A DNA stretch of 17,694 bases from IMG/VR virus record IMGVR_UViG_2799113093_000010, one strand, 5' to 3'. The translations under genes were made by a program, and so were the position numbers. This document shows, in pieces, positions 1-16,166 of the stretch. Every line of letters starts with the position of its first letter. The first letter of the stretch is position 1. Source of the DNA: a virus. Lineage: Duplodnaviria; Heunggongvirae; Uroviricota; Caudoviricetes. The notes under the pieces are model-generated. The model was not told the origin of the DNA. It did not search any database and saw only the letters and a list, made by a program, of their open reading frames with translations.

Positions 1-186
1 AGCCCTTGCGGCCGTGTAGTTGGGATAGATCGGCTGATCCTCTGAGAACGTCAGCGCTACGTCGGTCGGCCCCATGCCGGGGTACTTGCGCAGCATGTCG
101 CACACAACCCCGGTTGGCCGAGGATTGGCGTACGCGACGGGCGCACACCCGAGGGCGATCATCGTGGCCAACACGAGCGCCCTCAT
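1..186 (-). CDS. Secreted protein with signal peptide, possibly DUF732-like (partial, runs off window start)
   Basis: Not in ORF track. ATG at 186 overlaps the TGA of 183..464 (ATGA). My translation is MRALVLATMIALGCAPVAYA-NPRPTGVVCDMLRKYPGMGPTDVALTF..., open for 62 codons, with a hydrophobic leader ending AYA and a VCD-x-L motif. Confidence 0.7.
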   Translation of the reverse strand, partial: MRALVLATMIALGCAPVAYANPRPTGVVCDMLRKYPGMGPTDVALTFSEDQPIYPNYTAARA

Positions 187-464
187 TCGATGTGCCCGGG
201 CTCGCCAGGGGGGATGGCGTCAGGGGCGACGGTGTAGACGCTCGTCGCAACGGCGAAGCGCTGACCAGGCATGTAGGTCTGACGTGTCCGCTGCCACGAA
301 CCGTCCGGGGCTATCGGATCGTCACAGATGGTTCGGAACTGCGTGCCGAACACTCCCACGCGGTCGGTCTGACAGCCCGGCGGTACGGGGTCGTCAGCGT
401 GCGCAGGCGGGCTGAACATCAACGCCGCGAAAACGGCGACTACAACCCTCGAAGCCTTCTTCAT
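183..464 (-). CDS. Secreted CDGP-domain-like protein
   Basis: Signal peptide ending AHA; motif TICDDPIAPDGSWQR resembles mycobacterial CDGP proteins (CDGPIxPDGSWxR); ATGA coupling on both sides. Confidence 0.7.
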   Translation of the reverse strand: MKKASRVVVAVFAALMFSPPAHADDPVPPGCQTDRVGVFGTQFRTICDDPIAPDGSWQRTRQTYMPGQRFAVATSVYTVAPDAIPPGEPGHIE

Positions 465-748
465 GCGCGGATAGTACTGTGGTCAACGCACTCTTCGGCC
501 AGGAACGCGACCAGTCGGTCCACCTTGTCGATCCCCGCGAAGTGCCGGGGTACACGCCGGCAGTCTTGACCGTCGGCCCACAGGATCACGCCGGTGTGCG
601 CGTACATGATGCTCACCCACGACGGGGTGCCGGGCCGCCGATAGATGCAGTGTTCACCGACGTTGTTCGAGATCCAGCCGTGCACGCGGGCGGCCTGATC
701 GACGGCCTGCTGGCCGGTCAGCCCGAGGCTGAGTGCTTCGGCTGTCAT
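461..748 (-). CDS. Hypothetical phage protein, 95 aa
   Basis: GAAGGG RBS upstream of ATG 748; stop overlaps the next start (ATGA at 461-464); co-oriented with the integrase. Confidence 0.7.
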   Translation of the reverse strand: MTAEALSLGLTGQQAVDQAARVHGWISNNVGEHCIYRRPGTPSWVSIMYAHTGVILWADGQDCRRVPRHFAGIDKVDRLVAFLAEECVDHSTIRA

Positions 749-773
749 GTCGAATGCCCTTCAGTTGTGGAGG

Positions 774-1682
774 TCATGCAGCGGTCTGCCAGGGGGTTTG
801 AGCACCCGATCCGCTTGCGCCGATGACCGCTGCCCTCATCTCGTGATCGTCAACGGCGGTGTAGATCTGGGTGGTTGCCACGGAGGCGTGGCCGAGGAGC
901 CGTTGCACGGCGCGGATGTTGCGGGTAGCGCGGTAGGCGCGGGTGGCGAAGCGGTGGCGAAGCTTGTGCATGGTCCAGACTTCGGGCATGACCTTCGCGC
1001 ACAGTGTCCCCACCCACCGAGGAGACAGGTGGCCGTTGTCGTTGCCGGGGAACAGCCAGCCCGTTGGGCTGGAGCCGGGGGTGTGTCCGGCTGCGCCGCG
1101 TTGGATCATGGCGGTGAGCTCGTCGGTGATGGGGATGACGCGCTTTTTGTTGCCCTTGCCGTGGACGACGAGTTGGTAGCCGTCGAATGATTCGATGAGG
1201 TCGTTGGTGTGCACTTGGGCTACCTCGGCGCGGCGCATCCCGGCACCGCATGCCAGGTGCAGCATGACGGCCGTGCGGGCGTCGGCGGCGAGCAGCGATT
1301 CTTTCCAGACGCGATCGGGTGCGGGCTTGGGTAGCGGGACAGCAGCGGCGACATGGGGCAGTTCGGTTGAAGGATTTGTGCCGATCTGCCCGTCGTCGTG
1401 TGCCCATCCGAAGAAGCTGCGGGCGGAGTTTCGGTAGCCGCGCCGGGTCTCGATGCTCCATTGTGTTTGCGTGGAGAACCACGCCTGCAGGGTGTTACCG
1501 GTGACGGCCGTCGGCGGGGTGTCGAGAGCTCGCGCGATCCGAGCGATGTGGGACAGACGTGTGGCGATGGTGGTACTGGGCCGTCCGGCTGCGAGTTGAT
1601 GTTGCCGGTACCCCTTGATGAGGGTGTCCCATCCGGTAGGCACGGGTAGTGGTGCGGGGCCGGTCTTCTTGCGTGAGGTCAT
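774..1682 (-). CDS. int: Short (arm-binding-domain-less) tyrosine integrase, C-terminus ...QTAA
   Basis: Catalytic set intact: GMRRAEV (R), HGKGNK (K), HKLRH (HxxR), LLGH (H), TQIYT (Y). 302 aa, no long N-terminal arm domain. Lies next to a tRNA-derived att core. Confidence 0.93.
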   Translation of the reverse strand: MTSRKKTGPAPLPVPTGWDTLIKGYRQHQLAAGRPSTTIATRLSHIARIARALDTPPTAVTGNTLQAWFSTQTQWSIETRRGYRNSARSFFGWAHDDGQIGTNPSTELPHVAAAVPLPKPAPDRVWKESLLAADARTAVMLHLACGAGMRRAEVAQVHTNDLIESFDGYQLVVHGKGNKKRVIPITDELTAMIQRGAAGHTPGSSPTGWLFPGNDNGHLSPRWVGTLCAKVMPEVWTMHKLRHRFATRAYRATRNIRAVQRLLGHASVATTQIYTAVDDHEMRAAVIGASGSGAQTPWQTAA

Positions 1683-1691
1683 AAGCGCCCG

Positions 1692-1697
1692 ACCGTA
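1692..1697 (-). promoter_or_regulatory. Putative SigA -10 hexamer TACGGT for left int
   Basis: Fits TANNNT, 9 nt before ATG 1682, no SD; the same hexamer and spacing precede the right int. Confidence 0.5.
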
Positions 1698-1841
1698 GGT
1701 TGACGATGATCATGTTTCTTGAGGATCTCGCACCCTGTGATGAAGCTGTGAGCCTGCCGAGTCTCGTCGGTAACCACGGCGCGTCTACGCTGCACGAGGC
1801 GGGAAGGTCAGAAGGGGGGGATGCTCCGAAACCCGCACTTC

Positions 1842-1864
1842 GGTCAGGGGTCGAACCCCTGACC
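1842..1864. repeat. Perfect 9-bp inverted repeat GGTCAGGGG-TCGAA-CCCCTGACC abutting the att core
   Basis: Read directly from sequence: arms 1842-1850 and 1856-1864. Confidence 0.85.
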
Positions 1865-1900
1865 AGAAGGTTGGGGGTTCGAATCCCTTCGGGCGCACCA
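1864..1900 (+). other. att common core = 3' half of a tRNA, most like tRNA-Arg(ACG); not a functional tRNA
   Basis: CAGAAGGTTGGGGGTTCGAATCCCTTCGGGCGCACCA has a T-arm (GGGGG-TTCGAAT-CCCTT), an acceptor 3' strand and CCA, but no D-arm or anticodon upstream. The Arg(ACG) identity rests on my recollection of the mycobacterial gene. Confidence 0.85.
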
Positions 1901-2081
1901 TATTTCGGATGCCGGTGTCTTCGACATTGCGGAGCACCGTGCACGCCGCACCGCGACCAGCCCAATCGACCCGGTTCCGGCTTCGCTGCCGGTCGCGAGC
2001 TGACCCGGTAGCCACCGATGTCTTTCTATCCGTTTGGTAACGACTTGCTGGGAATCGGCCGTGAATAACGTGGTTCCGCTC

Positions 2082-2087
2082 TACGGT
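2082..2087 (+). promoter_or_regulatory. Putative SigA -10 hexamer TACGGT for right int
   Basis: TANNNT 9 nt before ATG 2097, mirroring the left int. Confidence 0.5.
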
Positions 2088-2096
2088 TCGGCGTCA

Positions 2097-2999
2097 ATGA
2101 GCAAGATCACCGGCCCCGCACCGACACCGGCTCCACCCGACTGGCAGCCACTCGTCGATCGATTCCTGACGCACCTGCAGGGGATCGGGCGACCCCGCAC
2201 GACTGTCTCGACCCGGCGCGCCCAGCTCCACCGAATAGCGCGCGGGCTCGGCATGCCGCCGGCGGCCGTCACCCAGGACGACGTCACCGACTGGTTCGCC
2301 GAGCAGAGCTGGTCGCCCGAGACGCGACGCGCCCACCGCAGCGCAGCAGTCGCGTTCTTCACCTGGGCGCACAAGCGAGGGGAAACCGCCAACGTCGCTG
2401 ACGAGTTCCCGAAGATCAAGCCTGCCGAACCAGCGCCGCGGCCCGCACCGGAACGTGCCTGGAAAGAATCGATCCTCGCCGCCACTCCGCGCGTAACCGT
2501 GATGCTGCGGCTAGCCCGCGAGGTCGGCATGCGGCGCGCCGAAGTCGCCCAAGCGCACACCGACGACCTCATCGACGGCATGGACGGCTGGCAACTTCTC
2601 GTGCACGGCAAAGGCAACAAGAACCGCATCGTCCCCATCCCCGACCACGTTGCAGACCTCGTACTCGCCGGCGCCGCCGGCCACACCGAAGGCGCTGATG
2701 CCACCGGATACCTGTTCCCGGGCAACGACAACGGCCATCTCTCAGCGCGCCGCGTCGGCGAGCTGTGCGCCGAAGCGCTCCCCGGGATCTGGACGATGCA
2801 CGCACTGCGGCACCGCTACGCCACCAACGCCTACCGCGGCACGCGCAACATCCGCGCCGTTCAGAAGCTCCTCGGCCACTCCAGCGTCGCCACCACCGAG
2901 CGATACACGGTAGTCGACGATGCCGAGCTACGCGCAGCAGCAATGTCTGCCAGCGACCGCCCCAGCCACCTCAATCTGGTAACTGAAATACCCGGATGA
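2097..2999 (+). CDS. int: Short tyrosine integrase, paralogue of 774..1682 (300 aa; start moved from 2034 to 2097)
   Basis: GMRRAEV, HGKGNK, HALRH, LLGH, TERYT all intact. The N-terminus MSKITGPAP aligns with MTSRKKTGPAP of the paralogue, fixing the start. Shared blocks include WKES, GAAGHT, LFPGNDNGHLS, TRNIRAVQ. Confidence 0.93.
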   Translation: MSKITGPAPTPAPPDWQPLVDRFLTHLQGIGRPRTTVSTRRAQLHRIARGLGMPPAAVTQDDVTDWFAEQSWSPETRRAHRSAAVAFFTWAHKRGETANVADEFPKIKPAEPAPRPAPERAWKESILAATPRVTVMLRLAREVGMRRAEVAQAHTDDLIDGMDGWQLLVHGKGNKNRIVPIPDHVADLVLAGAAGHTEGADATGYLFPGNDNGHLSARRVGELCAEALPGIWTMHALRHRYATNAYRGTRNIRAVQKLLGHSSVATTERYTVVDDAELRAAAMSASDRPSHLNLVTEIPG

Positions 3000-3023
3000 G
3001 CCACACCCCGTATCCAGCAGATA

Positions 3024-3043
3024 CGTGTCAACCAGTTGACACG
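3024..3043. repeat. Palindrome CGTGTCAAC-CA-GTTGACACG (operator or hairpin terminator)
   Basis: 9-bp perfect arms, 25 nt after the int stop. Confidence 0.75.
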
Positions 3044-3072
3044 GCCGTACACGCCATGTACCCCTTACGCCC

Positions 3073-3321
3073 ATGGCGAGCAAACCAACCTGGCTCGAAG
3101 GACGCGCCGACTTCCTCTGCGAATACCTCGTTCGCCGACATAGCCTTGTGGTCGCGCCGCCCACCCTCGTTGCCGACCTCTCCGACCAACTCGACAAGCT
3201 CGCCAACGACCTCGGGATCACCCGGCGCACTGCCCAGCAGTACCTCACCGACGACTACGTGCGCGGCTTCGGCGACCTTATCGCCGAACGAGTCCGCGAA
3301 GCCTGGCATCCGGGCAGGTAA
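3073..3321 (+). CDS. Hypothetical protein, 82 aa, helical
   Basis: Fills the gap between int and the lipoprotein with typical codon usage; no family recognised. Confidence 0.65.
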   Translation: MASKPTWLEGRADFLCEYLVRRHSLVVAPPTLVADLSDQLDKLANDLGITRRTAQQYLTDDYVRGFGDLIAERVREAWHPGR

Positions 3322-3348
3322 ACGAAACCGTGCAGCGACATCCTCGCG

Positions 3349-3354
3349 TACTGT
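3349..3354 (+). promoter_or_regulatory. -10 hexamer TACTGT of a probable leaderless promoter
   Basis: TANNNT exactly 7 nt before ATG 3362; no SD. Confidence 0.55.
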
Positions 3355-3361
3355 CCACACC

Positions 3362-3988
3362 ATGAAATTGCAGGTCATGATGCTTGCCGGGCTCGCGGCC
3401 TCCGCGGTCGCATGCTCCGCGTCGCACCCGGGTACCGCGCCGGCATCCACGGTCACCGTTACCGCGGCCGCGGCGTCCACGTCCAAGGCAGGATCAATGG
3501 ACGACGCCTACATGAGGGTGCTCAGCGATGCCGGCATCCACATCGAGCGTGCGGAGGCCATCCAGCTCGGGCACAAGGTGTGCGACTGGTTCAAGTTGGA
3601 CCACGACAATCAGGACTTGGCGGCGGTGTCTTCTGCTCGCGCTATCGCTGACCACTACACCGACATGTCGCAGAAGCAGGCCGGAGAGTTGATGGGTGCC
3701 GCCCGAGCCGCATACTGCCCAGAGGTGAACGAGGCCGATGCTGCCCGGGACGCCAAGTTCACGAAACAACTGTCGACACTCGGGATCTCGGTCAGCGAGC
3801 AGCGAGCCTCTGAGATCGCTAGCTTCGTCTGCGACGAGCTGATGCAACAGGGGAAGCACCTCGATGGCGACATTGTTGAGGCCCGGATGCGCGTGAAGTA
3901 CCCCGAGGTCAGCGACCCGGCGAACGCGACGATCGTGTATGGCTGGGCGACCGTCGACTACTGCCCGAAGTTCAGCCCGTACAACTAA
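3362..3988 (+). CDS. Lipoprotein with two tandem DUF732-like domains (start moved from 2996 to 3362)
   Basis: MKLQVMMLAGLAASAVAC lipobox-like Cys18; Thr/Ala linker; two units each with D..(Y/F)...L...GI, VCD and ...YCP. Confidence 0.8.
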   Translation: MKLQVMMLAGLAASAVACSASHPGTAPASTVTVTAAAASTSKAGSMDDAYMRVLSDAGIHIERAEAIQLGHKVCDWFKLDHDNQDLAAVSSARAIADHYTDMSQKQAGELMGAARAAYCPEVNEADAARDAKFTKQLSTLGISVSEQRASEIASFVCDELMQQGKHLDGDIVEARMRVKYPEVSDPANATIVYGWATVDYCPKFSPYN

Positions 3989-4002
3989 CCCACGACACGC
4001 AG

Positions 4003-4033
4003 AAGGCCCAGTCCCGGTGCGGGGCTGGGCCTT
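4003..4033. terminator. Hairpin terminator between convergent genes
   Basis: AAGGCCCAGTCCCG-GTG-CGGGGCTGGGCCTT, between stops at 3988 (+) and 4049 (-). Confidence 0.7.
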
Positions 4034-4048
4034 CCGGCTGATGAAGGG

Positions 4049-4387
4049 TTACTCGCTGCGGTACCAATCAGGCTGATACGGGAGCACCAGTTCCGCGAGC
4101 CAGGCCGGCGGCGTCCAGGAGGTCGGCGGCTCGGCACGGGTTGATTCGCCCTCGCCGTTCTTGACGATCCGCGGCCCACCCATGTGGAAGGTGCGCGAGT
4201 AGACGGGTGACGGCCCGCGCCAGGACACCGACCAGCGGCATCGGATATAGGTGATCCGCACCTCGTAGGGCTTCTTGTGGTACGGGCTGCTGGGCAGGCG
4301 GTGCTGGTTGTCCGGCACAGAGAGTGTCACCTCCTCCGTCCGGCCCAGTAGCACCGGTATCGGCACCGGGGTGACGTCCGCGCTCAT
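4049..4387 (-). CDS. Hypothetical protein, 112 aa
   Basis: ATGA-coupled to the upstream gene (4384-4387); ends just before the terminator. Confidence 0.65.
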   Translation of the reverse strand: MSADVTPVPIPVLLGRTEEVTLSVPDNQHRLPSSPYHKKPYEVRITYIRCRWSVSWRGPSPVYSRTFHMGGPRIVKNGEGESTRAEPPTSWTPPAWLAELVLPYQPDWYRSE

Positions 4388-4878
4388 CGGAGTGCCACCA
4401 ACTCCCCGGTATAGCTCGACCCTAGCGAGACTACTGGCGCACGGTGTGGCCCCTGATCTCTCGGCTCATACCAGAACCTGGGCACCGTAACTTGGTCGCC
4501 GACGCTGCACGGCTGGCTGCCCTCCCACACGTAGGCAAGTCTCGATCCATTCACCTCTACCTCGATGATCTGGTGGCCCTCGGCGTCATGTGTTCTGAAC
4601 GCTGCGCGCTCGCAGTCTTCGCGCTCACGACGTCTATGCTTGCTCTCCACCTGTATGGTCTTCGCGGAATAGCCAGAGCTGTAACCGAATTCACGACCAC
4701 GATCAAACGTGGCTGCCAGCACGGCCTCAAGTTCGTCGTCGAACGTGGAGGCGTGCTGCTTGCACGCTTGCCGGAATCCGTGGATCTGGATTCGACATGG
4801 GGTACCGCTGAGAGTGGGCCGACCGCAGAGGCGGTGACTCAGGCGGTCGATATTGATGGTGCGCCCCTCAAGCTTCAT
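4384..4878 (-). CDS. Hypothetical protein with N-terminal Zn-finger-like motif (start moved to 4878)
   Basis: Strong RBS GGAAGGA before ATG 4878; CGRPTLSGTPCR...ACKQH resembles the CGAxTRxGxPC...CxxH (HGGxSTG-type) motif. Confidence 0.7.
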   Translation of the reverse strand: MKLEGRTINIDRLSHRLCGRPTLSGTPCRIQIHGFRQACKQHASTFDDELEAVLAATFDRGREFGYSSGYSAKTIQVESKHRRREREDCERAAFRTHDAEGHQIIEVEVNGSRLAYVWEGSQPCSVGDQVTVPRFWYEPRDQGPHRAPVVSLGSSYTGELVALR

Positions 4879-4900
4879 GGTTGTCCTTCCTATGGATTGG

Positions 4901-4954
4901 CGAGGGCACCAAGCGCGTGAGAGTCGTGTGTCCATGACGCGCTTGGTGCCGTCG
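4901..4954. repeat. Intergenic inverted repeat with 14-bp perfect stem
   Basis: GGCACCAAGCGCGT (4905-4918) / ACGCGCTTGGTGCC (4937-4950), extended by CGA/TCG after one mismatch. Confidence 0.85.
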
Positions 4955-4962
4955 AAGCGTGG

Positions 4963-6147
4963 CTATCGGGCCGCTGCGACCAGCATCGCGTCGACGCCGG
5001 TGGCGGCGAACTCGTTGGAGCGGTCCACGTCCGCGATCTCCTGCGCGTATGAGGTGACGGCGTGCATGATGCCGCCCGCGGTCGGCTGGCCGCCCTTGAT
5101 GAAGTGGGACAGCAAGCCGCTCATCTCGTTCTGGGAGTAGGCGAGCTTCTTGCCGACCACCTCGATCGTCTGTTGCGGGTTGTCCAGCTCGACGCCGCTG
5201 GTTTCCTCCAGCTTGGCGATCGTCTTGGCGACGTACTCGGTGTTCATGTACGAGGCAACCGCGTCCCGGACCTGCTTCTTGACCAGCTCGTTGGCGGCGT
5301 CGATGGTGTCGGTCGACCAGGTGACGGTGCCTTCGTCGAGCTTGCGGCCCAGGTGGATCTTGCGCATCGCGTCGACGTTGATCTGCATGCCGTTGTCGCA
5401 CACCTGCACCCGCAGCTCCGGGGTGATGGTGAGCGCGCCGCCGCCCGTCTCGCTGTTGGTGACCAGCAGCCCGGCGTAGACCAGCTTCGGGTTTTCGGCT
5501 GTTTCGCCGCCGTGGCCGGTGCCCTGGAACGGGGAGCGGTATCCCTCCAGCAGCTTGCCTGCCTGCACCCCGAACTCGGGTGCGGTGACCCGCAGGTAGA
5601 GCCGGTCGTCGGTGAGGTCCGCGCCGCGGATATGGGTGTGGTTCAGCCCGGCCGCGTGCATGCCGTCAAGGAGCGCCATCACGGTGTCGAGGTTGTCGCG
5701 GATCCCATAGCGGTCGGAGAGCACCGCTCGCACTATGCCGCTGGTGCCTGGCTGGTCCGGGTCGCTGCCGGTGAGCATGCGGACCAGGACCTGACGCTTG
5801 GGATCGATACGGGAGGCCAGCGACTCGTAGTTGGTGTCCAGCAGCGGCACGTACTCGGCGCGCAGCTTGCGCACGTACTTGACTGGGATGTCCAGGACGC
5901 CAGCGAGTTGGGAGTCGGCGAGCTGGGTCAGCCCATAGGCCCCGTTGATGTCGGTGACGCCGTCCTCGTTGATCTGAGGGTCGTGGCCCGTCAGGATCAC
6001 GTTTCCGTCGCCGAACCGTAGCTGCCGTACAGGAACGACCAGGTCGAGCTTCTGGGCGTGCTGCTGTTCGAGGAGCGCGATCAGCTTGGGGAGGTCTGCG
6101 TTGCGCAGAGTCCGGGCCGGAATTTCGGGGAGTGTTGGTGCGGACAT
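4963..6147 (-). CDS. DUF932-like phage/plasmid protein (394 aa; start moved to 6147)
   Basis: RBS AGAAAGG before ATG 6147; motifs RAVLSDRY..RDN, GLLVTNSETGGGAL and VCDNGM...H typical of DUF932. Confidence 0.75.
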   Translation of the reverse strand: MSAPTLPEIPARTLRNADLPKLIALLEQQHAQKLDLVVPVRQLRFGDGNVILTGHDPQINEDGVTDINGAYGLTQLADSQLAGVLDIPVKYVRKLRAEYVPLLDTNYESLASRIDPKRQVLVRMLTGSDPDQPGTSGIVRAVLSDRYGIRDNLDTVMALLDGMHAAGLNHTHIRGADLTDDRLYLRVTAPEFGVQAGKLLEGYRSPFQGTGHGGETAENPKLVYAGLLVTNSETGGGALTITPELRVQVCDNGMQINVDAMRKIHLGRKLDEGTVTWSTDTIDAANELVKKQVRDAVASYMNTEYVAKTIAKLEETSGVELDNPQQTIEVVGKKLAYSQNEMSGLLSHFIKGGQPTAGGIMHAVTSYAQEIADVDRSNEFAATGVDAMLVAAAR

Positions 6148-6196
6148 TATGGGTGCCTTTCTAGTTGGCGGTGGGTGTTCGCTAGGCGATATGTTC

Positions 6197-6225
6197 AAGG
6201 TAAAGGCACCTGTACCTTAAATCAA
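6197..6225 (-). promoter_or_regulatory. SigA-like promoter of the DUF932 operon with embedded operator O1 (6200-6215)
   Basis: TTGATT-17 nt-TACCTT on the minus strand; palindrome GTAAAGGCACCTGTAC spans the spacer and the -10. Confidence 0.7.
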
Positions 6226-6290
6226 CTGTGAACAGCATAAATAAGTCACGACAGCCGATAGCCACAACCATCTTTAAGATTGCCGATCGC

Positions 6291-6320
6291 TTGATGTCCA
6301 TAGGTAAAGGCGCCTATACT
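6291..6320 (+). promoter_or_regulatory. SigA-like leaderless promoter of the toxin-like gene with operator O2 (6304-6319)
   Basis: TTGATG-18 nt-TATACT, ATG 6 nt later at 6327; palindrome GTAAAGGCGCCTATAC. Confidence 0.75.
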
Positions 6321-6326
6321 AATGGC

Positions 6327-6575
6327 ATGAGCAAGAGCGAACCGCGCATCACCCGCCCGGCCCGCCGCCACCGCATCGGCGACGCCCACATCCGGGCCGC
6401 TCTCGCGAACGCCGACGACTTCACCATCGACGGAGACATGGTCAAGTACTTCGGCCAGGACGATCGCGGCATCGACATGGAGGTCGGTGTGGTCCCCGAC
6501 AACCGCCGCCCCGGACGCTTCGCGATCATCCACGCCATGCCCCGCAAGTTCCTCATCCCTCGCTCCCAGCGGTGA
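6327..6575 (+). CDS. BrnT/RelE-superfamily-like toxin candidate, 82 aa (start moved to 6327)
   Basis: Pattern ARRHRI...HI..AL...G.DDRG..MEVGVV...IIHAMP.KF recalls small actinobacterial type II ribonuclease-toxin-like proteins; the promoter position supports the start. Confidence 0.6.
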   Translation: MSKSEPRITRPARRHRIGDAHIRAALANADDFTIDGDMVKYFGQDDRGIDMEVGVVPDNRRPGRFAIIHAMPRKFLIPRSQR

Positions 6576-6638
6576 CGCCGGGATTGGGATACAGCGGAGC
6601 GTGGAATGCGGAATCATGAGCCCCCGACAGGAGGATCG

Positions 6639-6785
6639 ATGGAAGAGCCATATGTGATTGATCTGAGCGGGTGGACGCGTCTGCCCGAAGCGGTCCACTA
6701 CGCGGATGTACGGGGGATCGACTTCGGCGATGCGATCCGGGAACTCGTCAATGCCGGCCTGAGTAACTGGAATGGCAACCCGTAG
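6639..6785 (+). CDS. Small protein, 48 aa (MEEPYVIDLSGWTRLPEAVHYADVRGIDFGDAIRELVNAGLSNWNGNP)
   Basis: Below the ORF-track cutoff; perfect AGGAGG SD at 6629-6634, ATG 6639, TAG 6783-6785, followed by a terminator. Confidence 0.65.
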   Translation: MEEPYVIDLSGWTRLPEAVHYADVRGIDFGDAIRELVNAGLSNWNGNP

Positions 6786-6815
6786 AGAAAGCGCACCCGT
6801 GCTGCAGAAACAGGG

Positions 6816-6842
6816 AACCCCCCAAGCTCAGCTTGGGGGGTT
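6816..6842. terminator. Strong hairpin terminator, probably bidirectional
   Basis: AACCCCCCAAGC-TCA-GCTTGGGGGGTT followed by GATTT; lies between the + toxin unit and the - tRNA unit. Confidence 0.8.
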
Positions 6843-6947
6843 GATTTGCATGCGGCGGTGTCCAGAATTAGCAGCCCACGTCTGAAACACCCTTACCGGC
6901 CGTCGGCCACATGCTGCAGTAGACGATACGCCCCGATCAGGGCCTTG

Positions 6948-7020
6948 TGCCACCGGCAGGAGTCGAACCTGCAACCGTCCGCTTAGGAGGCGTCCGCTCT
7001 ATCCGTTGAGCTACGGCGGC
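6948..7020 (-). tRNA. tRNA-Arg(CCT), 73 nt, CCA not encoded, imperfect anticodon stem
   Basis: GCCGCCG-TA-GCTC AACGGATA GAGC-G-GACGC CT CCT AA GCGGA-CGGTT-GCAGG TTCGACT CCTGC-CGGTGGC-A. Acceptor, D and T arms pair; anticodon is the complement of 6985-6987. Confidence 0.85.
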
Positions 7021-7043
7021 ATGCGAGCGGTGCGCTGGAAGCG

Positions 7044-7274
7044 CTATCGGCCGCCCGTCTCGATCCTGTTCACGATCTGCCCGGCTCTGACCTTCGTGAT
7101 TTCGGCTGCTTTCGCCAGCCTGGTCTTCGCGATGCCCATGGCGTCGCCGGTACGGATCAGGTCGTAGATGTGGTCCTGCACGTCTCTCCGCTGCTGGATC
7201 AAGGACTTCTTCTTCTGGCTGGCTGCAGCCAGGTCAGCAAGCAGCTCAAGCCGTTGCTGGGTGTCCTCGTCCAT
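7044..7274 (-). CDS. Small coiled-coil + C-terminal HTH protein, 76 aa (start moved to 7274); candidate repressor/antitoxin
   Basis: MGIAKTRLAKAAEITKVRAGQIV fits a helix-turn-helix; TATACT lies 8 nt before the ATG; stop is 23 nt upstream of the tRNA. Confidence 0.7.
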   Translation of the reverse strand: MDEDTQQRLELLADLAAASQKKKSLIQQRRDVQDHIYDLIRTGDAMGIAKTRLAKAAEITKVRAGQIVNRIETGGR

Positions 7275-7282
7275 AGCGCCAT

Positions 7283-7299
7283 AGTATAGGCGCCTGTAC
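7283..7299 (-). promoter_or_regulatory. -10 TATACT with operator O3 (7284-7299) upstream of the HTH-tRNA unit
   Basis: Minus strand reads GTACAGGCGCCTATACT versus GTAAAGGCGCCTATACT at 6304-6320 (16/17 identical). Confidence 0.75.
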
Positions 7300-7417
7300 C
7301 CCACTCCAAGTGGGAGAACTTGGTGCCCTCCAGGCTGAGCCGCGTGCTCTCCCGGAGTGTGCTGCATCGATCAAGATCCCACTGTAGAGTGCCCGCTAAC
7401 AGTTTGGTCGAGGGGGT

Positions 7418-7744
7418 GTGGTGGCAGGCGACAAAGAGGTGCTCAAGGTCGACCTCGACGCGCTGGGCAAGCTGGGTCCGCATCTGCGGACGCTCGAAGA
7501 GCAGATCACCGCCAGCACTGCGGCCTGCAGCACGACGGCACCGGCGGGTGCTGATCCGGGCCTGGCGGCGCTGTACGGAATGTCGAAAGCCATCGTCGAT
7601 GTCAAGAAGGTCGCCGCTGCTCGGTTGGGGACGATCGCGGACTTCGCCGATGAAGCCCAGAAAGATTTCGCGGTCACGTCCAGTTCGCTGGAGGCCGGTT
7701 TCCGTAACCTGCCCAGCATCTACAAGCCGCCGCTGCAAGCGTAG
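7418..7744 (+). CDS. WXG100-like small ESX (type VII) substrate/partner
   Basis: About 108 aa, helical, LKVDLDALGKL N-terminus typical of mycobacterial ESX partners; directly upstream of the WxG toxin. It has no Trp, so the call rests on size and context. Confidence 0.65.
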   Translation: MVAGDKEVLKVDLDALGKLGPHLRTLEEQITASTAACSTTAPAGADPGLAALYGMSKAIVDVKKVAAARLGTIADFADEAQKDFAVTSSSLEAGFRNLPSIYKPPLQA

Positions 7745-7753
7745 GGGCGTGTC

Positions 7754-10084
7754 GTGACGCCGCTCGATGAGTTCATGGCGAAAGACCGGAACTCCTATAT
7801 GGTGCCGGTGGGCGAGTGGCGACCGCAGACCACGCAGTACAAGGAAGCCTACGACGACTACAAACGCTGGGCCGATAACCCCGCGGGTAGCGAGTGGTGG
7901 GGGCGCTGCGCGAATGCGACATCGGAAGTCGCGGCGAAGGATTGCCACAACTCCGATCACACCGACGACACCACCGAGGATGCCGTCAGGTTGATAACGG
8001 CCACCATCACCTACGAAGTGGTGGAGCCGCTGACCGCTGGCCAGAACCTGATCGAGCGAGTGCTAGCCCGCAAGAACCAGGGTGTGTCCATCGATCAGAC
8101 CTATCACGTGACCTACACCGCCCCGGAGGGGATGAGCGAAGCACAGGCCGCCAAGAACACCAAGGAAGCCGAAGAAGCCGAACGCCAGATCAAGGAATAC
8201 GTCGCCAAGTGGGAGAAGGGCTGCCAAACCCTCAAAACCCAGGCCGACGCCGCGGCCCAGAAGATCACCGACCGCACCAACCCGGCAACAGTCCTCGTCG
8301 ACGGCCGCAAGGTCCTACGCGACGCGGTCGGCCCCGTTCCGGCTGCTCGCCCCGGTGTGGAGACGGTGGTGGGTGGCAAGCCGGTCTCGGAGTTGTTGCC
8401 AGGGATTAACCCCCGCCAGGTCGACCCGGCCGCCACGACTGCTCAGACCGCTTCGACCGCGACGCCGACCGATCCGTCGAAGCTGCTGGAACAGTCGTTG
8501 CCCAAGCCCGCAGCCGACCAGAAGCCGGTCTACGATCCGAAGTCGCTGGGCTCCCTGGGTAGCGTGACTGGCTTCTTGGAGGCGAACAAGAAGCCCGACG
8601 CGAAGCCGGCCGATCAGCCTGCACCGCAACAGAAGGGCTTTATCGACGGTTGGGTCGATGAAGCGAAGAAGACAGCCTCGGGCATCGTCGAACACGCTGG
8701 GGATCTGGTCGGCCTGCACGGCGCTGACAAGGCCAAGGACGCGTGGATACAGACCGCGACGGGCATGGGGATGCAGTTGGCCGAGCAGGACCCAACCTTC
8801 GGCCCGGCCATTCGGAACTATGAGAACCAGGTCGAGGCGGTGAACAACGCCGCCGAGACGATCCAGCACCCCGAAGACACCATGCGGCGGGTCGGTGCGC
8901 AGACCTTCGATTTTCAGGCCAAGCTCGGTGCCGATGCCCTAGCGCTCGGTACCGGTGGGATTGGTCGCGTGGCCGAGGGCGGCATTCTGGAAGGAGCGCT
9001 CGCCGAGGGTCGAGCTGGACTGTCCGAGGCTGCCGTTCCGACCCTTCGAGGTGCCGTCACCGACAGCGTTAAGGGCTTCCTCGATGACGCGATGCACCCA
9101 CACATCGAGGCACCAGCAGCACCCCACGTCGAAACCCCCTCCCTGCCGCGCGTCGAGACTCCCGTAGCACCCCACGTCGAAGCCCCAGCTGCACCCCACG
9201 TCGAGACGCCCCCACCTCCGCAGGCAGACGTACCGACCACACCCCATACGGAAGCACCCGCACCGCACACCGAGGTACCTGCAGCGCCGAGAGCGGAAGT
9301 CCCCGCCGCGCCCCACGTCGAAGCCCCGGCTGCGCCGCGGGCCGAGGTACCGGTAGCACCACACGTAGAGGGTCCCGCAACACCTCATGCCGAAGTACCG
9401 TCAGCACCGCAGCTAGACGGGGTACCAGTAGCACCGCATGTAGAGGCACCCGCCGCGCCGGACGCCGAAGCACCTGCGCCCGCTCCACACCAACCAGAAC
9501 CGAACGTCGGAACCAGCCACCCGGAGCCGAACACCGGTCATCAGCCACCGCCGACAAGCGGTGGCGATCACTCCGCAGGCAGTGGTGATCACACACCGGC
9601 GCACACCGATTCGGACTCAGGTAGCCGGCTACCAGCGCATGGGGAGCCGGACTCATTTGGCTACGACGCCGACGGCAACCGACTCAGGTACGCGAACGAT
9701 AGGCCAGATTACGGCGCGGGGCAGGAGGAGACGGTCTGGAACAACTCGCGTGACGACCAGCTGGCACGCATCGACGCCGGCCAGCTCGACCTTCCCCGAC
9801 CTGGTCCGAACCAGCAGTGGGTGGAGCTACATCCTCAGGGTCCGATCGGCGACGACTGGACCGTTCAGAACGGCCACCGACTAATCGAATGGGAGCCCGG
9901 TGACTCTCGCAGAGGCCTCTGGGACATGGGTCACGGCCGCGGACTGGAGTACCGCGACCTTCGACAGTTGTATCTGAACGGCGACATCTCCTTTGAGGAA
10001 TTCATGAGCCGGTACCGGGATCCCGGCAACTACCGAGTCGAGGACCCGTACCGGAACCAGTCCCACATTGACGAGGGTCCATGA
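7754..10084 (+). CDS. ESX-secreted polymorphic toxin with C-terminal GH-E (HNH/EndoVII) nuclease domain
   Basis: N-terminal WxG (EWWG, aa 47-50) helical domain; LALGTGG pre-toxin-like segment; Pro-rich linker; C-terminal RP.Y..GQ.E.VW, WDMGH..G.E (9920-) and DP.NYR.E...N.SH..E. Confidence 0.88.
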   Translation: MTPLDEFMAKDRNSYMVPVGEWRPQTTQYKEAYDDYKRWADNPAGSEWWGRCANATSEVAAKDCHNSDHTDDTTEDAVRLITATITYEVVEPLTAGQNLIERVLARKNQGVSIDQTYHVTYTAPEGMSEAQAAKNTKEAEEAERQIKEYVAKWEKGCQTLKTQADAAAQKITDRTNPATVLVDGRKVLRDAVGPVPAARPGVETVVGGKPVSELLPGINPRQVDPAATTAQTASTATPTDPSKLLEQSLPKPAADQKPVYDPKSLGSLGSVTGFLEANKKPDAKPADQPAPQQKGFIDGWVDEAKKTASGIVEHAGDLVGLHGADKAKDAWIQTATGMGMQLAEQDPTFGPAIRNYENQVEAVNNAAETIQHPEDTMRRVGAQTFDFQAKLGADALALGTGGIGRVAEGGILEGALAEGRAGLSEAAVPTLRGAVTDSVKGFLDDAMHPHIEAPAAPHVETPSLPRVETPVAPHVEAPAAPHVETPPPPQADVPTTPHTEAPAPHTEVPAAPRAEVPAAPHVEAPAAPRAEVPVAPHVEGPATPHAEVPSAPQLDGVPVAPHVEAPAAPDAEAPAPAPHQPEPNVGTSHPEPNTGHQPPPTSGGDHSAGSGDHTPAHTDSDSGSRLPAHGEPDSFGYDADGNRLRYANDRPDYGAGQEETVWNNSRDDQLARIDAGQLDLPRPGPNQQWVELHPQGPIGDDWTVQNGHRLIEWEPGDSRRGLWDMGHGRGLEYRDLRQLYLNGDISFEEFMSRYRDPGNYRVEDPYRNQSHIDEGP
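9098..9481 (+). repeat. 16 tandem ~8-aa repeats (consensus PHVEAPAA) in the toxin linker
   Basis: PHIEAPAA/PHVETPSL/PRVETPVA/PHVEAPAA/.../PDAEAPAP; one 7-aa and one 9-aa unit. Confidence 0.9.
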
Positions 10085-10108
10085 CTAATCCAGAGGTAGG
10101 GTGATGCC

Positions 10109-10627
10109 GTGAGCGTGGTCATGGCCGCATGGGAGGGGTCGTTTGAGGATTTCCTCAGCGTGTATACCCCTGCCGACGCGACGAAGCTCTTCGGGGACGG
10201 ACGTCCGCTGCTTTTCAAGTCCGTCGGAAACAGAGACGTCAAGGCGCGAGTAGCGATCACTAATCGGCTGCTGGACGACGGCGCCGACCCGTCGATAGCG
10301 CCCGACAACGTGAACGTGCTGCACGTGCTTTTCGACCAGCGAACACATGACACGGAGTACGAGGCACCGATGCTGCGGCGGTTGATCGAACGCGGCGCGG
10401 ACATCAACCTGTTCTCCAAGCGGTCTGGTCCACCGCTCGCGGTGTTGATCCAGCACGGCCCGTCGCCGGAGAGCGAGTGCGTTCCCTTCTACGACGTGAT
10501 ATTCGATCAGCCGAACCTCGATCTCACCGGCCGCTACCTACATGACCTCATCTTCAACTCCGCGTGGAACCTGCCCATCCTCCGGGAGCGGGTGCTGGCG
10601 TACGAGTCTGCGCACGAATCGGCGTAG
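10109..10627 (+). CDS. Ankyrin-repeat-like immunity protein
   Basis: LLDDGADPS, N.LH.L and LIERGADIN ankyrin motifs; first gene after the toxin; SD-like GAGGTAGGG. Confidence 0.78.
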   Translation: MSVVMAAWEGSFEDFLSVYTPADATKLFGDGRPLLFKSVGNRDVKARVAITNRLLDDGADPSIAPDNVNVLHVLFDQRTHDTEYEAPMLRRLIERGADINLFSKRSGPPLAVLIQHGPSPESECVPFYDVIFDQPNLDLTGRYLHDLIFNSAWNLPILRERVLAYESAHESA

Positions 10628-10631
10628 ATGG

Positions 10632-10997
10632 ATGGCTGACTACATCGACTTCATCCCGAAGTCCGGGGTGTGCCTCGCCACTGAGAATGTGATGGACCGT
10701 CGAGGCGTCGTCCGCTGGATGTGGCGGCGAGAGTCTCAGCGGCCCGCTGACAACGGCTGGCGAATCATGAGCCATCTCGACACGAGTGAGTACCTCGATG
10801 ACCCGAACAACTGGCGGATAGTCGCGTTCAACGATGTCTGCAACATCGAGCCGGCGCTGATCGGCATCTACGACTTCCCAGTCGGGTCCGACCTGCAGAT
10901 CGTGCGTGACGAGCGGGGCATCAGCATCTACGACACCCCGACCGGGCGGCAGATACCCGAGGAAGAGTTCTACGTTCCGCCGGAGTTCCGGGCATAG
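10632..10997 (+). CDS. DUF2185/Imm33-like immunity protein (start moved to 10632)
   Basis: C.AT..V...V.WM.R....ADNGWR..S...SEYLDDP.N..IV.FN...NIEP....YD.PVGSDL matches the DUF2185 pattern; ATG 4 nt after the previous stop. Confidence 0.8.
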   Translation: MADYIDFIPKSGVCLATENVMDRRGVVRWMWRRESQRPADNGWRIMSHLDTSEYLDDPNNWRIVAFNDVCNIEPALIGIYDFPVGSDLQIVRDERGISIYDTPTGRQIPEEEFYVPPEFRA

Positions 10998-11019
10998 TCG
11001 CGCGGCGCTAACAGAAAAG

Positions 11020-11051
11020 TGCGCCCCTACCCCGTGAGGGGCAGGGGCGCA
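11020..11051. terminator. Bidirectional terminator between the toxin operon and the late/lysis operon
   Basis: TGCGCCCCT-A-CCCC-GTGA-GGGG-C-AGGGGCGCA; AGAAAAG before it (U-tract on -) and TGCTCTTTC after. Confidence 0.8.
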
Positions 11052-11075
11052 TGCTCTTTCGGTCAGACGATGGTG

Positions 11076-11423
11076 CTAAACAGCGTCACGGACAGCGGCA
11101 ATGGTGCGGCGCCACTCGGCGACCTTCTCCGGTGACACCTGGTCGCCGACCAGCACCACCATCTCGTCGGCCACCACCAGCAGCGCCCGGGTCAACCGCT
11201 CCAGCGTCTGCAGCTCCGCGTCCAGCTTCTCCTCGCGTCTCTCCAGTCGCGAGATCAGCTTGTTGGAGGACTCGGTGATCGTGCCGGCCGCGGTCGCCAC
11301 CGACTTCGCGGCGTCCGCGCGCTTGGAGCCGCGCGCGAACAGCCCGGAGATGATGGCGGTCATGAGGGAGCCCGCCGCGGCGGAACCCGCGATGGCCATG
11401 AGGATCTGGGGGAGGTCGCTCAC
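11076..11423 (-). CDS. Lysis-cassette membrane protein (N-terminal TM + coiled coil)
   Basis: Hydrophobic aa 7-29, then heptad-like LERREEKLDAELQTLERL; GTGA overlap with the upstream gene. Confidence 0.75.
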   Translation of the reverse strand: MSDLPQILMAIAGSAAAGSLMTAIISGLFARGSKRADAAKSVATAAGTITESSNKLISRLERREEKLDAELQTLERLTRALLVVADEMVVLVGDQVSPEKVAEWRRTIAAVRDAV

Positions 11424-11860
11424 TGGCGGTGGGCCTCCCGTTCAACACGGGCAAGCTCTCGCGCGCTGCGTAGAACCAGGAACGCCACGCACACGGACAG
11501 GCCGGCGCCCACGGCAGCCGAGAATGATCCGCCCAGCCCCACATACCAGTAGGCGGTGACCACCGACGCCAGCCCGAACCACTGCCCGACGTCTCCACCC
11601 AACTGGAGCCACAACCCCGAGTACCGCAACTTGCCGCGCAGCTGACAGCCGATCAGCACGATGCCTGGGCACATGATGTTGATCCAGATCCAGCACTGGT
11701 AGAAGAACTCGCCGAGCACCGGCTCGATCGGCGACGGCGGCTCGTCGTAGAACAGGGCGTACCAGCCCCAGCAGCAGAACGCCGTGTACATCACGCACTG
11801 ATAGAGGCGCACCGACTTCGAGTCGAGGAGCGCCCAGAACCACCCGAGCGTGGACCGCAT
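11420..11860 (-). CDS. Multi-pass (about 4 TM) lysis-cassette membrane protein (start moved to 11860)
   Basis: Four hydrophobic segments; TGATG coupling to the holin stop at 11860-11862. Confidence 0.75.
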   Translation of the reverse strand: MRSTLGWFWALLDSKSVRLYQCVMYTAFCCWGWYALFYDEPPSPIEPVLGEFFYQCWIWINIMCPGIVLIGCQLRGKLRYSGLWLQLGGDVGQWFGLASVVTAYWYVGLGGSFSAAVGAGLSVCVAFLVLRSARELARVEREAHRQ

Positions 11861-12147
11861 CACTTGGCCAGTTCGACGGCGGTGGTGAGCGACGCTGTCC
11901 CCGGATTGCCGCGGCGAAGCGACCACAGCGAGAACAGGATCGACAGCACCAGGGTGCCCGAGCCGACGTCGAAGCCGCTGGCCCAGTCGATGTCGGAGAA
12001 CGCGACGGTGCCTTGGCCGATAGCCAGGCCGGTGGCCGCGTCGATCAGGTGAGCGCCGACGATGAATCCGCCGGCGAATGTCTTGACGGCACGCTCGCCA
12101 ATGTCCTTGACGGTGGCTTGGTACTTCTCGGGGATCGGGTTATACAT
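11860..12147 (-). CDS. Holin, r1t-like family (start moved to 12147)
   Basis: ERAVKTFA...IDW.......LSILFSL pattern of r1t-type holins; RBS GAGGGAG; follows lysB. Confidence 0.78.
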   Translation of the reverse strand: MYNPIPEKYQATVKDIGERAVKTFAGGFIVGAHLIDAATGLAIGQGTVAFSDIDWASGFDVGSGTLVLSILFSLWSLRRGNPGTASLTTAVELAK

Positions 12148-12274
12148 TGCTGCTCCCTCTATTCGAGTAAATACGAACGCGCAGGTCAAAGCCTCAATCG
12201 CGCTTACAGTCGGTTTAGAGCTGAAATAGATTCAGGGGTTCGGGACTGGGCCGGACTTACTACCGCTACAACCG

Positions 12275-13408
12275 CTATTGCAGCTGCGCGGCGACGTCGA
12301 ACTGGAAGCCCTGGTTCCACTCGGCCCAGGACCCGGGGAACAACAGAAGCGTTGCGGTAGGCACCTTCTCGCGGATCAACGCGGTGGCCTTGTCCACGGC
12401 GTTCATCCCGTCCCACAGCCAGTACTTCGGGTCCTGCTCGCCGTAGCGGCCATGCGCACCGGTGACCGCGAACTTGATTGCGTCAGTGAGCAGTTGGATG
12501 AGCTGCGGCAGCAGCGCCAGGATCTGGATCGGCCCGAGCAGGTTTCCGACGACGTTGGCTGGTCCGCTGGTCATCGCGCCCGCGAGCCCGGACAGCACTC
12601 CAGCGACCGGATCGGTGGATGGTGCCTGTCCCATGAGCTGCTGCATGGCCATCGTCGGGAACTGGGTGAACAACCAGGTGGCGAAGTCCAACGTCAACTC
12701 GGCACGCGAGATGACCTGGTACAGGATGAACAGCAACCCTCTGGCTTGCGGGTACCAGTCGCCGTCGATGGCGAACGAGTAGTAGCGGTCCCAGCACCAT
12801 TGCGGCTGCGGCTCTTTCGAGATGCCCTCGCCGGGCATATCGCCAAGCAGCGAACCCTGCGCGGGCATAGACGGGTCGCCGAAGGTGACCACCATCTTGA
12901 TGTCGCCGCGCCACTCGGGGGGCACCGTGTTCAGGAACCGCTGCACCGAGGTGCCGCCCATGCTGTATCCGATCGGCACGATGGGCGCCGGACCGTTGGC
13001 ACGCAGGATCGAGTGCAGCCGGTGCCCCTCCTGCCCGAAGTTCCACACGTCCTTCTGGAAGCTCGGGGCGTCGGGCGGCATCAGGTAGGCGCGGGAGTCG
13101 CCGCCGACACCCTGAATCGGGAACCGGGGCGGCTCGGCCGGGTGTGGGATCAGGCCGAGTGCATCGCGGGTGTTGTAGTCCAGCACGCCGTCGATGCGCA
13201 GCGGCACCTTGCCCTGCCGCACCCGCTCCACGTTCTTGTTGATCTGGTATGTGACTAGCGCCGCGCGGAAGTCCTCGCCGAAGTACGTTTCGTCGTCGAG
13301 CAGCTTCCCATACGAGAACTTGCGTCGCAGTTCGCGTTTCGCGGCCTGGACAGGCTCGCCGCGGTCACCGACGCCATAGCCGATCCACTTGCCGTCAGGT
13401 CCGTTCAC
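12275..13408 (-). CDS. lysB: Lysin B (mycolylarabinogalactan esterase, cutinase-like) with N-terminal peptidoglycan-binding domain
   Basis: PGBD-like GVGDRGEPV...LVTYQ...DGVLDYNT..AL; nucleophile GYSMG (Ser 12964-12962), FGDP, DGDWY (12766-12758), AHGRY (His 12454-12452); GTGA-coupled to lysA. Confidence 0.88.
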   Translation of the reverse strand: MNGPDGKWIGYGVGDRGEPVQAAKRELRRKFSYGKLLDDETYFGEDFRAALVTYQINKNVERVRQGKVPLRIDGVLDYNTRDALGLIPHPAEPPRFPIQGVGGDSRAYLMPPDAPSFQKDVWNFGQEGHRLHSILRANGPAPIVPIGYSMGGTSVQRFLNTVPPEWRGDIKMVVTFGDPSMPAQGSLLGDMPGEGISKEPQPQWCWDRYYSFAIDGDWYPQARGLLFILYQVISRAELTLDFATWLFTQFPTMAMQQLMGQAPSTDPVAGVLSGLAGAMTSGPANVVGNLLGPIQILALLPQLIQLLTDAIKFAVTGAHGRYGEQDPKYWLWDGMNAVDKATALIREKVPTATLLLFPGSWAEWNQGFQFDVAAQLQ

Positions 13409-14910: not shown

Positions 14911-15155
14911 CGGCCGCCACCTCCCAGGAATGGGATGCGTGCCAGGAGCTTTCCGACGATGCCGTCGAGGACCTTGTCGTCGAGCGTTCCGGGGATGACG
15001 TCGGTGATCCGGTCAACGGCCTCGTCGATGCGCTCGGCGATCTGTGCCTCGAAGCGCGCCAGGATGACAGCGAGCCGCTTTTCCACGGCCACGGTGATCT
15101 TGTCCGCGATCAGGTTGAACAGCTGATCACGCCATCCAGCAAGGGTTTTCACCAT
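14907..15155 (-). CDS. Pre-lysin hypothetical protein, 82 aa (start moved to 15155)
   Basis: DVIPGTLDDKVLD resembles the small gene often found just before mycobacteriophage lysA; GTGA overlap with lysA. Confidence 0.72.
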   Translation of the reverse strand: MVKTLAGWRDQLFNLIADKITVAVEKRLAVILARFEAQIAERIDEAVDRITDVIPGTLDDKVLDGIVGKLLARIPFLGGGGR

Positions 15156-15292
15156 CCGTACCCGCCCTCGATCCGATAGTCGAACTCGTCGCCGTATGTG
15201 GACAGCCGGGCGTTGACGTGCCAGCCGACGAGGAAACAGACCACCGCCACGACGGCATAGAACGGGGAGTGCTTCGCCAACTGCGCGGTCAT
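15149..15292 (-). CDS. Small single-TM membrane protein, 47 aa
   Basis: FYAVVAVVCFLVGW hydrophobic segment; ATGA coupling at 15289-15292. Confidence 0.68.
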   Translation of the reverse strand: MTAQLAKHSPFYAVVAVVCFLVGWHVNARLSTYGDEFDYRIEGGYGW

Positions 15293-15777: not shown

Positions 15778-16118
15778 GACTGCGCGTAGCTCGGGGTCAG
15801 CACGATCTGCCCGGCAGCGGACAGGATCGTGGAAACGATTGCAGCCCAGTCGATCATGGTTGCACCCGTCGCCGCAGAGCACAGCGGTGCATGAGTGTAG
15901 GTGCCGGCGTTGGCGTTGATGGTGCAGGCGGTCCCGTTGATGTTTCCGCCCGATCCCGAGGACCAGGTGGTGGCGACGCGCGCATACGAACCGCCGGACG
16001 CCTCGTTGGCTGGGGTGGTCGTGGTGCCAGGGTTGGCGGTAGCCAGGCCGAAGAACGTGCCGAGCGTGCCGTACCGATCGGCCAGATTCTGGCGGGTGGT
16101 GGCGACTGCAATTGACAT
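15774..16118 (-). CDS. Minor tail protein, 114 aa
   Basis: GLATANPG...NEASGGSYAR...W...AGTYTH pattern common in actinophage tail-tip genes; RBS AAGGGA. Confidence 0.78.
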   Translation of the reverse strand: MSIAVATTRQNLADRYGTLGTFFGLATANPGTTTTPANEASGGSYARVATTWSSGSGGNINGTACTINANAGTYTHAPLCSAATGATMIDWAAIVSTILSAAGQIVLTPSYAQS

Positions 16119-16166
16119 GGTTGGTCCCTTCCAATGGGGTTGGGGTTCTGAAATGCGTTGGGGAAA

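Follow-up and report, generated by a model that had tools for sequence, protein, structure and literature searches.

We analysed a 17,694-nucleotide stretch of IMG/VR virus record IMGVR_UViG_2799113093_000010 (the window; bases 1,428-19,121 of an 88,683-bp contig), in which the genes for two tyrosine integrases, IntL and IntR, point away from a single tRNA gene fragment. We conclude with good confidence that this seam is an internal junction in a tandem stack of mobile elements at the 3′ end of tRNA-Arg(ACG) in Mycobacterium abscessus, and that both phages meeting there carry a lysogeny switch of the type known from phage BPs, that of the right-hand phage being mirrored. The array would read, in order, tRNA, element A, core, element B, core, element C. 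Element A would be a MabN-like phage of ~41 kb, with only its right 3.3 kb on the contig, element B a 74.6-kb MabK-like phage, and element C an island or prophage with a 387-amino-acid (aa) integrase, which directly adjoins the tRNA in other strains. Mechanism and site have both been published, and the locus is a variant rather than a new kind of system.

The anatomy of the seam, with its repeats, homologies and stop codons, can be read directly from the DNA. Its features are as follows (window coordinates):

774-1682, minus strand: IntL, tyrosine integrase of element A, 302 aa, ending ...QTAA
1785-1865, minus strand: remaining 3′ part of the repressor gene of element A, encoding the tail W-SGVRPLTEVRVSEHPPLLTFPPRAA-stop with an ssrA-like -AA tag, cut off by integration
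1851-1882, no strand: inverted-arm stretch around AGAA, 12 of 14 positions complementary, on the attP side of element A
1864-1900, plus strand: junction core, tRNA-Arg(ACG) positions 40-76, ending in CCA, with G at position 49 (window 1873)
1872-2003, plus strand: presumed remaining 3′ part of the repressor gene of element B, made up of TGG (1872-1874), 42 further codons and TGA (2001-2003)
2097-2999, plus strand: IntR, tyrosine integrase of element B, 300 aa, ending ...EIPG

The first-pass annotation of the window had read the seam as a junction of two phages at a 37-bp tRNA 3′ fragment with no host DNA on either side. Each flank of the seam indeed matches its own phage type, and both flanks of the core are repressor gene remnants, the right one presumed. 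The identity of the tRNA was also correct: the core corresponds to positions 40-76 of the tRNA-Arg(ACG) of which other M. abscessus loci have intact copies, and ARAGORN and Rfam found no intact tRNA at 1864-1900. For element A the fragment is attR, and for element B it is attL; it is 100% identical to the attL core of the MabK prophage prophiT37-1. A further core, predicted for the far right of a phage-sized segment, is present in the same direction, the two copies on the contig (3,291-3,327 and 77,935-77,971) being direct repeats that are 37/38 identical and 74,644 bp apart. Because of this second copy, and because the same junction occurs in at least four other public assemblies, chance is excluded as the origin of the seam. 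A candidate for the third member of the direct-repeat series, the intact tRNA-Arg(ACG) expected to the left, was found in the related assembly GCA_900133725.1, where a single 857-kb scaffold carries tRNA-Ser, intact tRNA-Arg(ACG), a gap of Ns, the right end of element A, the junction core, element B, the second core and element C.

Around the gap, this scaffold (FVHQ01000002.1; L163 7897-8138) contains an intact tRNA-Arg(ACG) with G49, 134 bp of the left flank of element B, a fold-back copy of the tRNA 5′ part and 12 Ns. Element A could be missing from some cells, or the assembly could equally have been mis-threaded through the repeated core. That element A measures only 1.9 kb, as the scaffold would have it, was ruled out, the Ns and the fold-back copy marking the stretch as an assembly artefact.

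Both integrases are catalytically intact, as the first-pass annotation had stated. IntL retains R150, K176/179, H239, R242, H265 and Y274, and IntR retains R146, K172/175, H235, R238, H261 and Y270; both match PF00589 (E 2e-27 and E 5e-22, respectively). Pfam reported the catalytic domain only and detected no arm-binding domain in either protein, in agreement with their earlier description as arm-less. IntR most likely starts at the ATG at 2097, a choice made on homology; its open reading frame (ORF) opens at TTG 2034. The best solved relative of IntR is Gp33 (5vfz; E 7e-19, aligned residues 17-280). Between the two genes, a scan restricted to consensus sequences found neither a sigma-70-like promoter nor a terminator.

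The integrases had also been called paralogous. They are clearly related (58% identity over 273 residues, E 2e-106), and at the DNA level their genes form inverted repeats of 71-77% identity. Judged by their sequences, however, they are not recent paralogs, because either of them shares only ~55-65% identity with BPs gp32 and with the MabK integrase, and the two fall into separate clades of the integrase tree. IntL is 58.8% identical to BPs gp32, 64.5% to the integrase of the MabK prophage prophiGD43A-5 and 93.7% to that of IMG/VR locus L138. For IntR, the corresponding values are 56% to the prophiGD43A-5 integrase and about 60% to the integrases of Paito and Weirdo19. IntR and an 88%-identical metagenomic variant form a clade of their own inside an unresolved set of canonical clades. 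The 90% cluster of IntR has three members only, its next relatives being at most about 60% identical, and close relatives were absent from the one-genome-per-species contigs and from IMG/VR, both of which were searched. An exact look-up with the 300-aa IntR returned nothing; the 312-aa gene call did give matches.

In the published switch type, rep and int form one operon in the free phage, with the attP core inside rep. Integration by the small arm-less integrase splits rep, so that its 5′ part meets a stop codon supplied by the host and yields a short, stable repressor, while the 3′ part and int remain at the opposite prophage end. Element A shows this integration-dependent immunity in its textbook form, with rep antisense to the tRNA. 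Contig positions 1-3,327 are syntenic with L138 (89-95% identity), a 41,200-bp MabN-like contig that is 96% identical to prophiGD53-3 in the lysis and tail region, and the ~41 kb that we assign to element A are taken from this relative. The 45 nt left of the core are identical in L138 and the window. L138 holds the attP form, whose full-length repressor crosses the core in antisense and finishes with ...TFW SGVRPLTEVRVSEHPPLLTFPPRAA; the tail of this repressor is identical to the detached tail in the window. In L133, which holds the attL form with the intact tRNA, the repressor ends ...TF, the TG of the core and T39 of the tRNA together making TGA. The same stop would be formed in element A, whose repressor tail (...PRAA) and integrase (...QTAA) both end in -AA.

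Element B extends from the junction core to contig position 77,971. Between contig positions 3,856 and 77,261 it is collinear end to end, on the opposite strand, with the MabK prophage prophiT37-1 (76,210 bp; 68-80% nucleotide identity), although calling it MabK-like rests on nucleotide similarity and gene order and formal clusters are defined by gene-content thresholds. Its genes for terminase, portal, protease, major capsid, RecE, ParB and Ro60 each gave one full-length match. When element B is turned to the orientation of prophiT37-1, int, rep, cro and the early genes appear in MabK order and on MabK strands, and only the 37-bp core is reversed. With the core reversed within rep, element B enters the tRNA gene in the opposite direction: the end near the tRNA is that of IntR, and the repressor gene repB occupies the far end and is read the same way as the tRNA. 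A tblastn survey of 153 loci with the exact core placed the related integrases beside it to the left and on the minus strand in 18 of 18 cases, with none mirrored. In BPs, gene 33 contains the attP with the same core in tRNA sense, and int and rep are minus-strand genes there. The opposite polarity proposed in the first-pass annotation is thus borne out by a MabK-like phage that is inverted relative to all known users of the site. Two features went unnoticed in that annotation of the seam: element B, too, has its attP within the repressor gene, and a third element follows the second core.

What sets the direction in which arm-less tyrosine recombinases insert DNA is the asymmetric exchange region, as in Cre- and Xer-like sites, and not the position of the int gene. 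The mirrored arrangement thus needs no new chemistry. An integrase of this type acts alone in both directions (PMC3694055).

The base at tRNA position 49 points to the place of strand exchange. It was A in 16/16 intact tRNA copies inspected from strains without element B and G in 5/5 junction cores (the window and four other assemblies), and prophiT37-1 has G49 at attL and A49 at attR. This distribution over attL and attR in prophiT37-1 and element B suggests that strands are exchanged to the left of position 49. If so, the G at the junction derives from the attP of element B, whichever element integrated first. The imperfect inverted repeat at 1851-1882, in the half that comes from element A, would fit such an exchange point; it folds far better than shuffled versions (z -4.3) and is likely a core-type integrase binding site. 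Exchange within the palindromic T-loop (TTCGAA), which would permit either orientation, was ruled out by the same G49/A49 distribution. A second, perfect hairpin with a 9-bp stem (window 1843-1865; GGTCAGGGG TCGAA CCCCTGACC) lies within the coding part of the repressor tail of element A; on the minus strand it mimics the tRNA T-arm and provides an inverted copy of the T-arm half-site.

The repressor gene of element B meets the second core at the far right end of the element. Two genes are concerned here (L008 coordinates, from the right-hand part of the same contig):

3253-3507, minus strand: Cro-like HTH_26 gene beside RepB and divergent from it
3599-3946, plus strand: RepB, helix-turn-helix repressor of 115 aa, matching phrog_2328 (transcriptional repressor; E 2.6e-14)

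RepB enters the second core in tRNA sense and is terminated there by a TAG; the A of this codon is tRNA position 49. At the same place, the junction core has TGG (Trp), its G being that at window 1873, and the frame stays open to the TGA at 2001-2003, which lies 94 nt before the ATG of IntR. Joining the repB ORF to the junction frame in silico gave a 158-aa product ending ...SLPVAS, and with the ends of element B joined, IntR follows RepB on the same strand. Since the G at the junction would derive from the attP of element B, the free-phage RepB is most likely this 158-aa protein, as reconstructed in silico, and insertion would swap its TGG for the TAG of the host. In element B, rep would thus read the core in tRNA sense, and the host A49 would convert the phage TGG into TAG. 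The tail removed in this way may act as a degron. We detected no repeated 9- or 10-mers resembling arm sites in the reconstructed attP, and the junctions specific to element B (repressor arm with core; core with left flank) gave zero exact-pattern matches in viral or metagenome contigs.

The DNA-binding part of RepB is about 60% identical to the repressors of cluster Z phages (Rem711, 32HC). These repressors read a different tRNA core in antisense and have an -AA end, and their partner integrase is only 28-31% identical to IntR and IntL, which makes the switch of element B a mosaic. The Rem711 repressor (L172, MG770216 33,680-34,057) holds the antisense 3′ end of that other tRNA, ends ...EKDAA and overlaps the start of the integrase; from its sequence, it looks like another integration-dependent immunity system. 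RepA, the repressor of element A, and RepB showed no BLASTP similarity, which rules out a recent common origin of the two switches. Repressors this unlike are consistent with different immunities.

Several points weigh against the reading of two such switches in a tandem array. The tail frame of element B is presumably coding, but we estimate that at this GC content it would be open by chance in roughly one case in three. Neither this tail (...PVAS) nor IntR (...EIPG) carries the -AA tag; the missing tags do not exclude element B, because the published family also has members without -AA (BPs, MabC, MabN, MabO and MabH). The G49 assigned to its viral form is taken from the junction copy and not from a free-phage attP. 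The intact tRNA and the left end of element A lie off the contig, and the sole scaffold that links them to the seam has the N gap and the fold-back artefact described above. Moreover, IntL adjoins IntR wherever DNA upstream of IntR is visible, and element B was never seen integrated alone. When the first 5,000 positions of the window (1-5000) were followed in four runs (water and biofilm metagenomes and one isolate), the contigs held only A-type DNA; the IntR side is uninformative there and has no bearing on the presence of element B.

The untagged tail and a frame open by chance would also be expected if element B were mirrored but not integration-dependent. Its attP would then already carry TAG (A49), the same repressor would be made in phage and prophage, and the G49 at the junction would stem from the attP of element A or from later mutation. 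That the phage-borne base varies is evident from prophiGD43A-5, which has A49 at both ends. We nevertheless consider this version improbable. A-type cores elsewhere have A49, not G49 (5/5), and the G49 of the junction is kept in four other assemblies, one of which shares 99.06% identity with the window. In prophiT37-1, the attL/attR pattern puts the exchange left of position 49, so that the junction base should be derived from element B, and the nearest relatives of RepB, the cluster Z repressors, themselves have a tRNA core and an -AA tail. These observations argue for a repressor of element B that integration shortens.

Two other explanations concern the seam rather than the switch. The tandem could have arisen by homologous recombination between phage genomes or from a pre-formed co-integrate, in which case one element would be a defective remnant and the seam would not be a working att site. 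Such routes were discussed by Amarh et al. for their own tandem prophages (PMC9934374), and the body of element A is not visible, contigs breaking within it in every assembly. However, the seam coincides exactly with the core and the flank on either side matches that side's phage type, similarity between the two elements at the seam is limited to these 37 bp and the diverged, inverted int genes (about 71-77%), and the essential genes of element B appear intact by sequence; we regard a recombinational origin as very improbable. Least credible of all, despite the adjacency of IntL and IntR in every assembly that shows DNA upstream of IntR and a symmetric layout with about 100 nt from each tail remnant to its int, is that both integrases are parts of a single composite element and act together, either as the two subunits of a recombinase or as a switch that inverts DNA around the core they share. 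Many contigs and water metagenomes have A-type integrases with that flank but no IntR, and the attL and attP forms seen elsewhere already indicate that the A-type integrates alone. Element B has direct core repeats as its exact boundaries and corresponds over its full length to a complete known phage type, each side bears the remnant of its own, unrelated repressor, and the core copies are direct, not inverted, and define no invertible segment. We therefore retain two separately integrated prophages, both of which may be active.

The chromosomal site is attB-1 of Dedrick et al. 2021, which is used by the MabK prophages prophiGD43A-5 and prophiT37-1 (PMC8092301). Using the neighbouring aminotransferase gene to retrieve the locus from other M. 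abscessus genomes, we found three states of the site: empty, occupied by an island that encodes a 387-aa integrase and immediately follows the tRNA, or occupied by a canonical MabK prophage. At the empty site (L175, L177), the native tRNA-Arg(ACG) lacks an encoded CCA and ends ...GCGCAC followed by TCATCC. CCA is present at every occupied site, where the elements supply it. The core common to the native attB is therefore 35 bp (positions 40-74) and not 37 bp.

The 70 nt to the right of the second core of element B are identical to the tRNA-island junction of strains that have element C only. Because this flank matches strains in which element C follows an intact tRNA, element C was already resident and elements A and B lie between it and the tRNA. 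As for A and B themselves, either order (B first, with A entering the rebuilt tRNA, or A first, with B entering the attR of A) predicts identical sequences. Element C, outside the window, directly follows the second core (contig 78,040-88,683; L008 4041-14684), and its first gene is:

4041-5204 (L008), minus strand: tyrosine integrase of element C, 387 aa, pointing toward the tRNA fragment, with 80-95% identical homologs at that position in many loci

Homologs of this integrase sit there not only in many strains of M. abscessus but in other mycobacteria as well. Element C also has a replication-initiator-like gene and, only about 5.5 kb from the integrase, a gene for a tape measure protein of 1,328 aa that is 80-84% identical to those of MabA1-type prophages.

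In the head-to-head layout of the seam, the active repressors would sit at the outer ends of the pair, RepA facing the tRNA and RepB facing element C, and both detached tails and both int genes would meet at the shared inner core. Because the repressors face outward and both tail remnants lie at the seam, neither repressor should be able to acquire the tail of the other, and no frame constraint would apply. We can only tentatively suggest, as something on balance unlikely, that the reversed core is not neutral. It would then let two such phages share one attB without either repressor reading into the degradation tail of the other; element A would insulate IntR from tRNA-Ser/tRNA-Arg read-through and so stabilize element B, and the integrases might cross-act, giving single, double or swapped excisions. 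In a lysogen with element B only, transcription of tRNA-Ser/tRNA-Arg would run straight into IntR.

No phage lysogeny switch is known that is simpler than integration-dependent immunity, whose parts serve as mycobacterial genetic tools. The locus suggests that the attachment core can sit in either direction within the repressor gene, and that the truncating stop can come from a single host base inside the core instead of from the core boundary. IntR would be a second, distantly related attB-1 integrase with the opposite direction of insertion and could serve vector design. The probable stack of three elements at one tRNA in clinical M. abscessus isolates also bears on prophage-driven strain diversity and on phage susceptibility.

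The remainder of the window is taken up by the bodies of the two phages:

1-773, minus strand: right-end genes of element A, comprising a 95-aa ORF (461-748), an ORF with a CDGP domain (183-464; PF24238) and the start of the next ORF
3000-17694, no strand: left 14.7 kb of element B, with genes (Pfam) for a DUF732 protein, tRNA-Arg(CCT), a GH-E polymorphic toxin with Imm33, holin, lysin B, lysin A and tail proteins

The tRNA-Arg(CCT) of element B (6947-7020) is the only tRNA in the window, and prophiT37-1 is listed without a tRNA. It belongs to another isoacceptor than the integration target tRNA-Arg(ACG), and a role as a replacement copy is not obvious. A diverged B-like phage is present on a metagenome scaffold (L167; ERZ28623012) that starts at window position 2007, just beyond the core; its identity to element B is 88% in the IntR region and rises to 94-97% further in. 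Where element B has GH-E/Imm33, its toxin cassette encodes a 697-aa protein with GAD-like and Tdi1-type neighbours, which fits the published swapping of such cassettes.

The integration-dependent immunity of BPs (cluster G) and its relatives was described by Broussard et al. 2013 (PMC3694055; PMC4557955). Elements A and B share with it an attP inside the repressor gene, a rep/int operon opposite a cro-like gene, a small integrase without an arm-binding domain and the 3′ end of tRNA-Arg(ACG) as target. The -AA tails of the BPs family are found in element A but not in element B. Element B further differs from BPs in three respects: the core is reversed inside rep, so that rep runs with the tRNA; the stop arises where host and phage differ by one base within the core (A49 versus G49), and not at the core boundary; and the DNA-binding part of the repressor is of the cluster Z (Rem711/32HC) type.

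With the MabK prophages at attB-1 (prophiGD43A-5, MW584167; prophiT37-1, OQ417969), whose published records annotate attP within the immunity repressor, element B has in common the attB, the 37-bp core, ~74 kb of collinearity (prophiT37-1) and a polymorphic toxin cassette near the int end. In contrast to them, it is inverted relative to the tRNA, and its cro, rep and int are replaced by unrelated or distant versions.

The closest parallel to the seam itself is the pair prophiT36-2a/2b, tandem prophages at attB-2 in tRNA-Thr (Amarh et al. 2023, PMC9934374). Like elements A and B, these are two different prophages with integration-dependent immunity at one tRNA attB, the middle core being attR of one and attL of the other, and one of them is MabN-like with a swapped integration cassette, as is element A. 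The prophiT36 pair lies head to tail, so that the second repressor reads into the tail remnant of the first phage, and the authors argue that different reading frames are required (PMC9934374). Elements A and B, in contrast, lie head to head at a different site and are followed by a third element, an arrangement in which two such phages could stack at one tRNA and avoid the frame conflict of the published pair.

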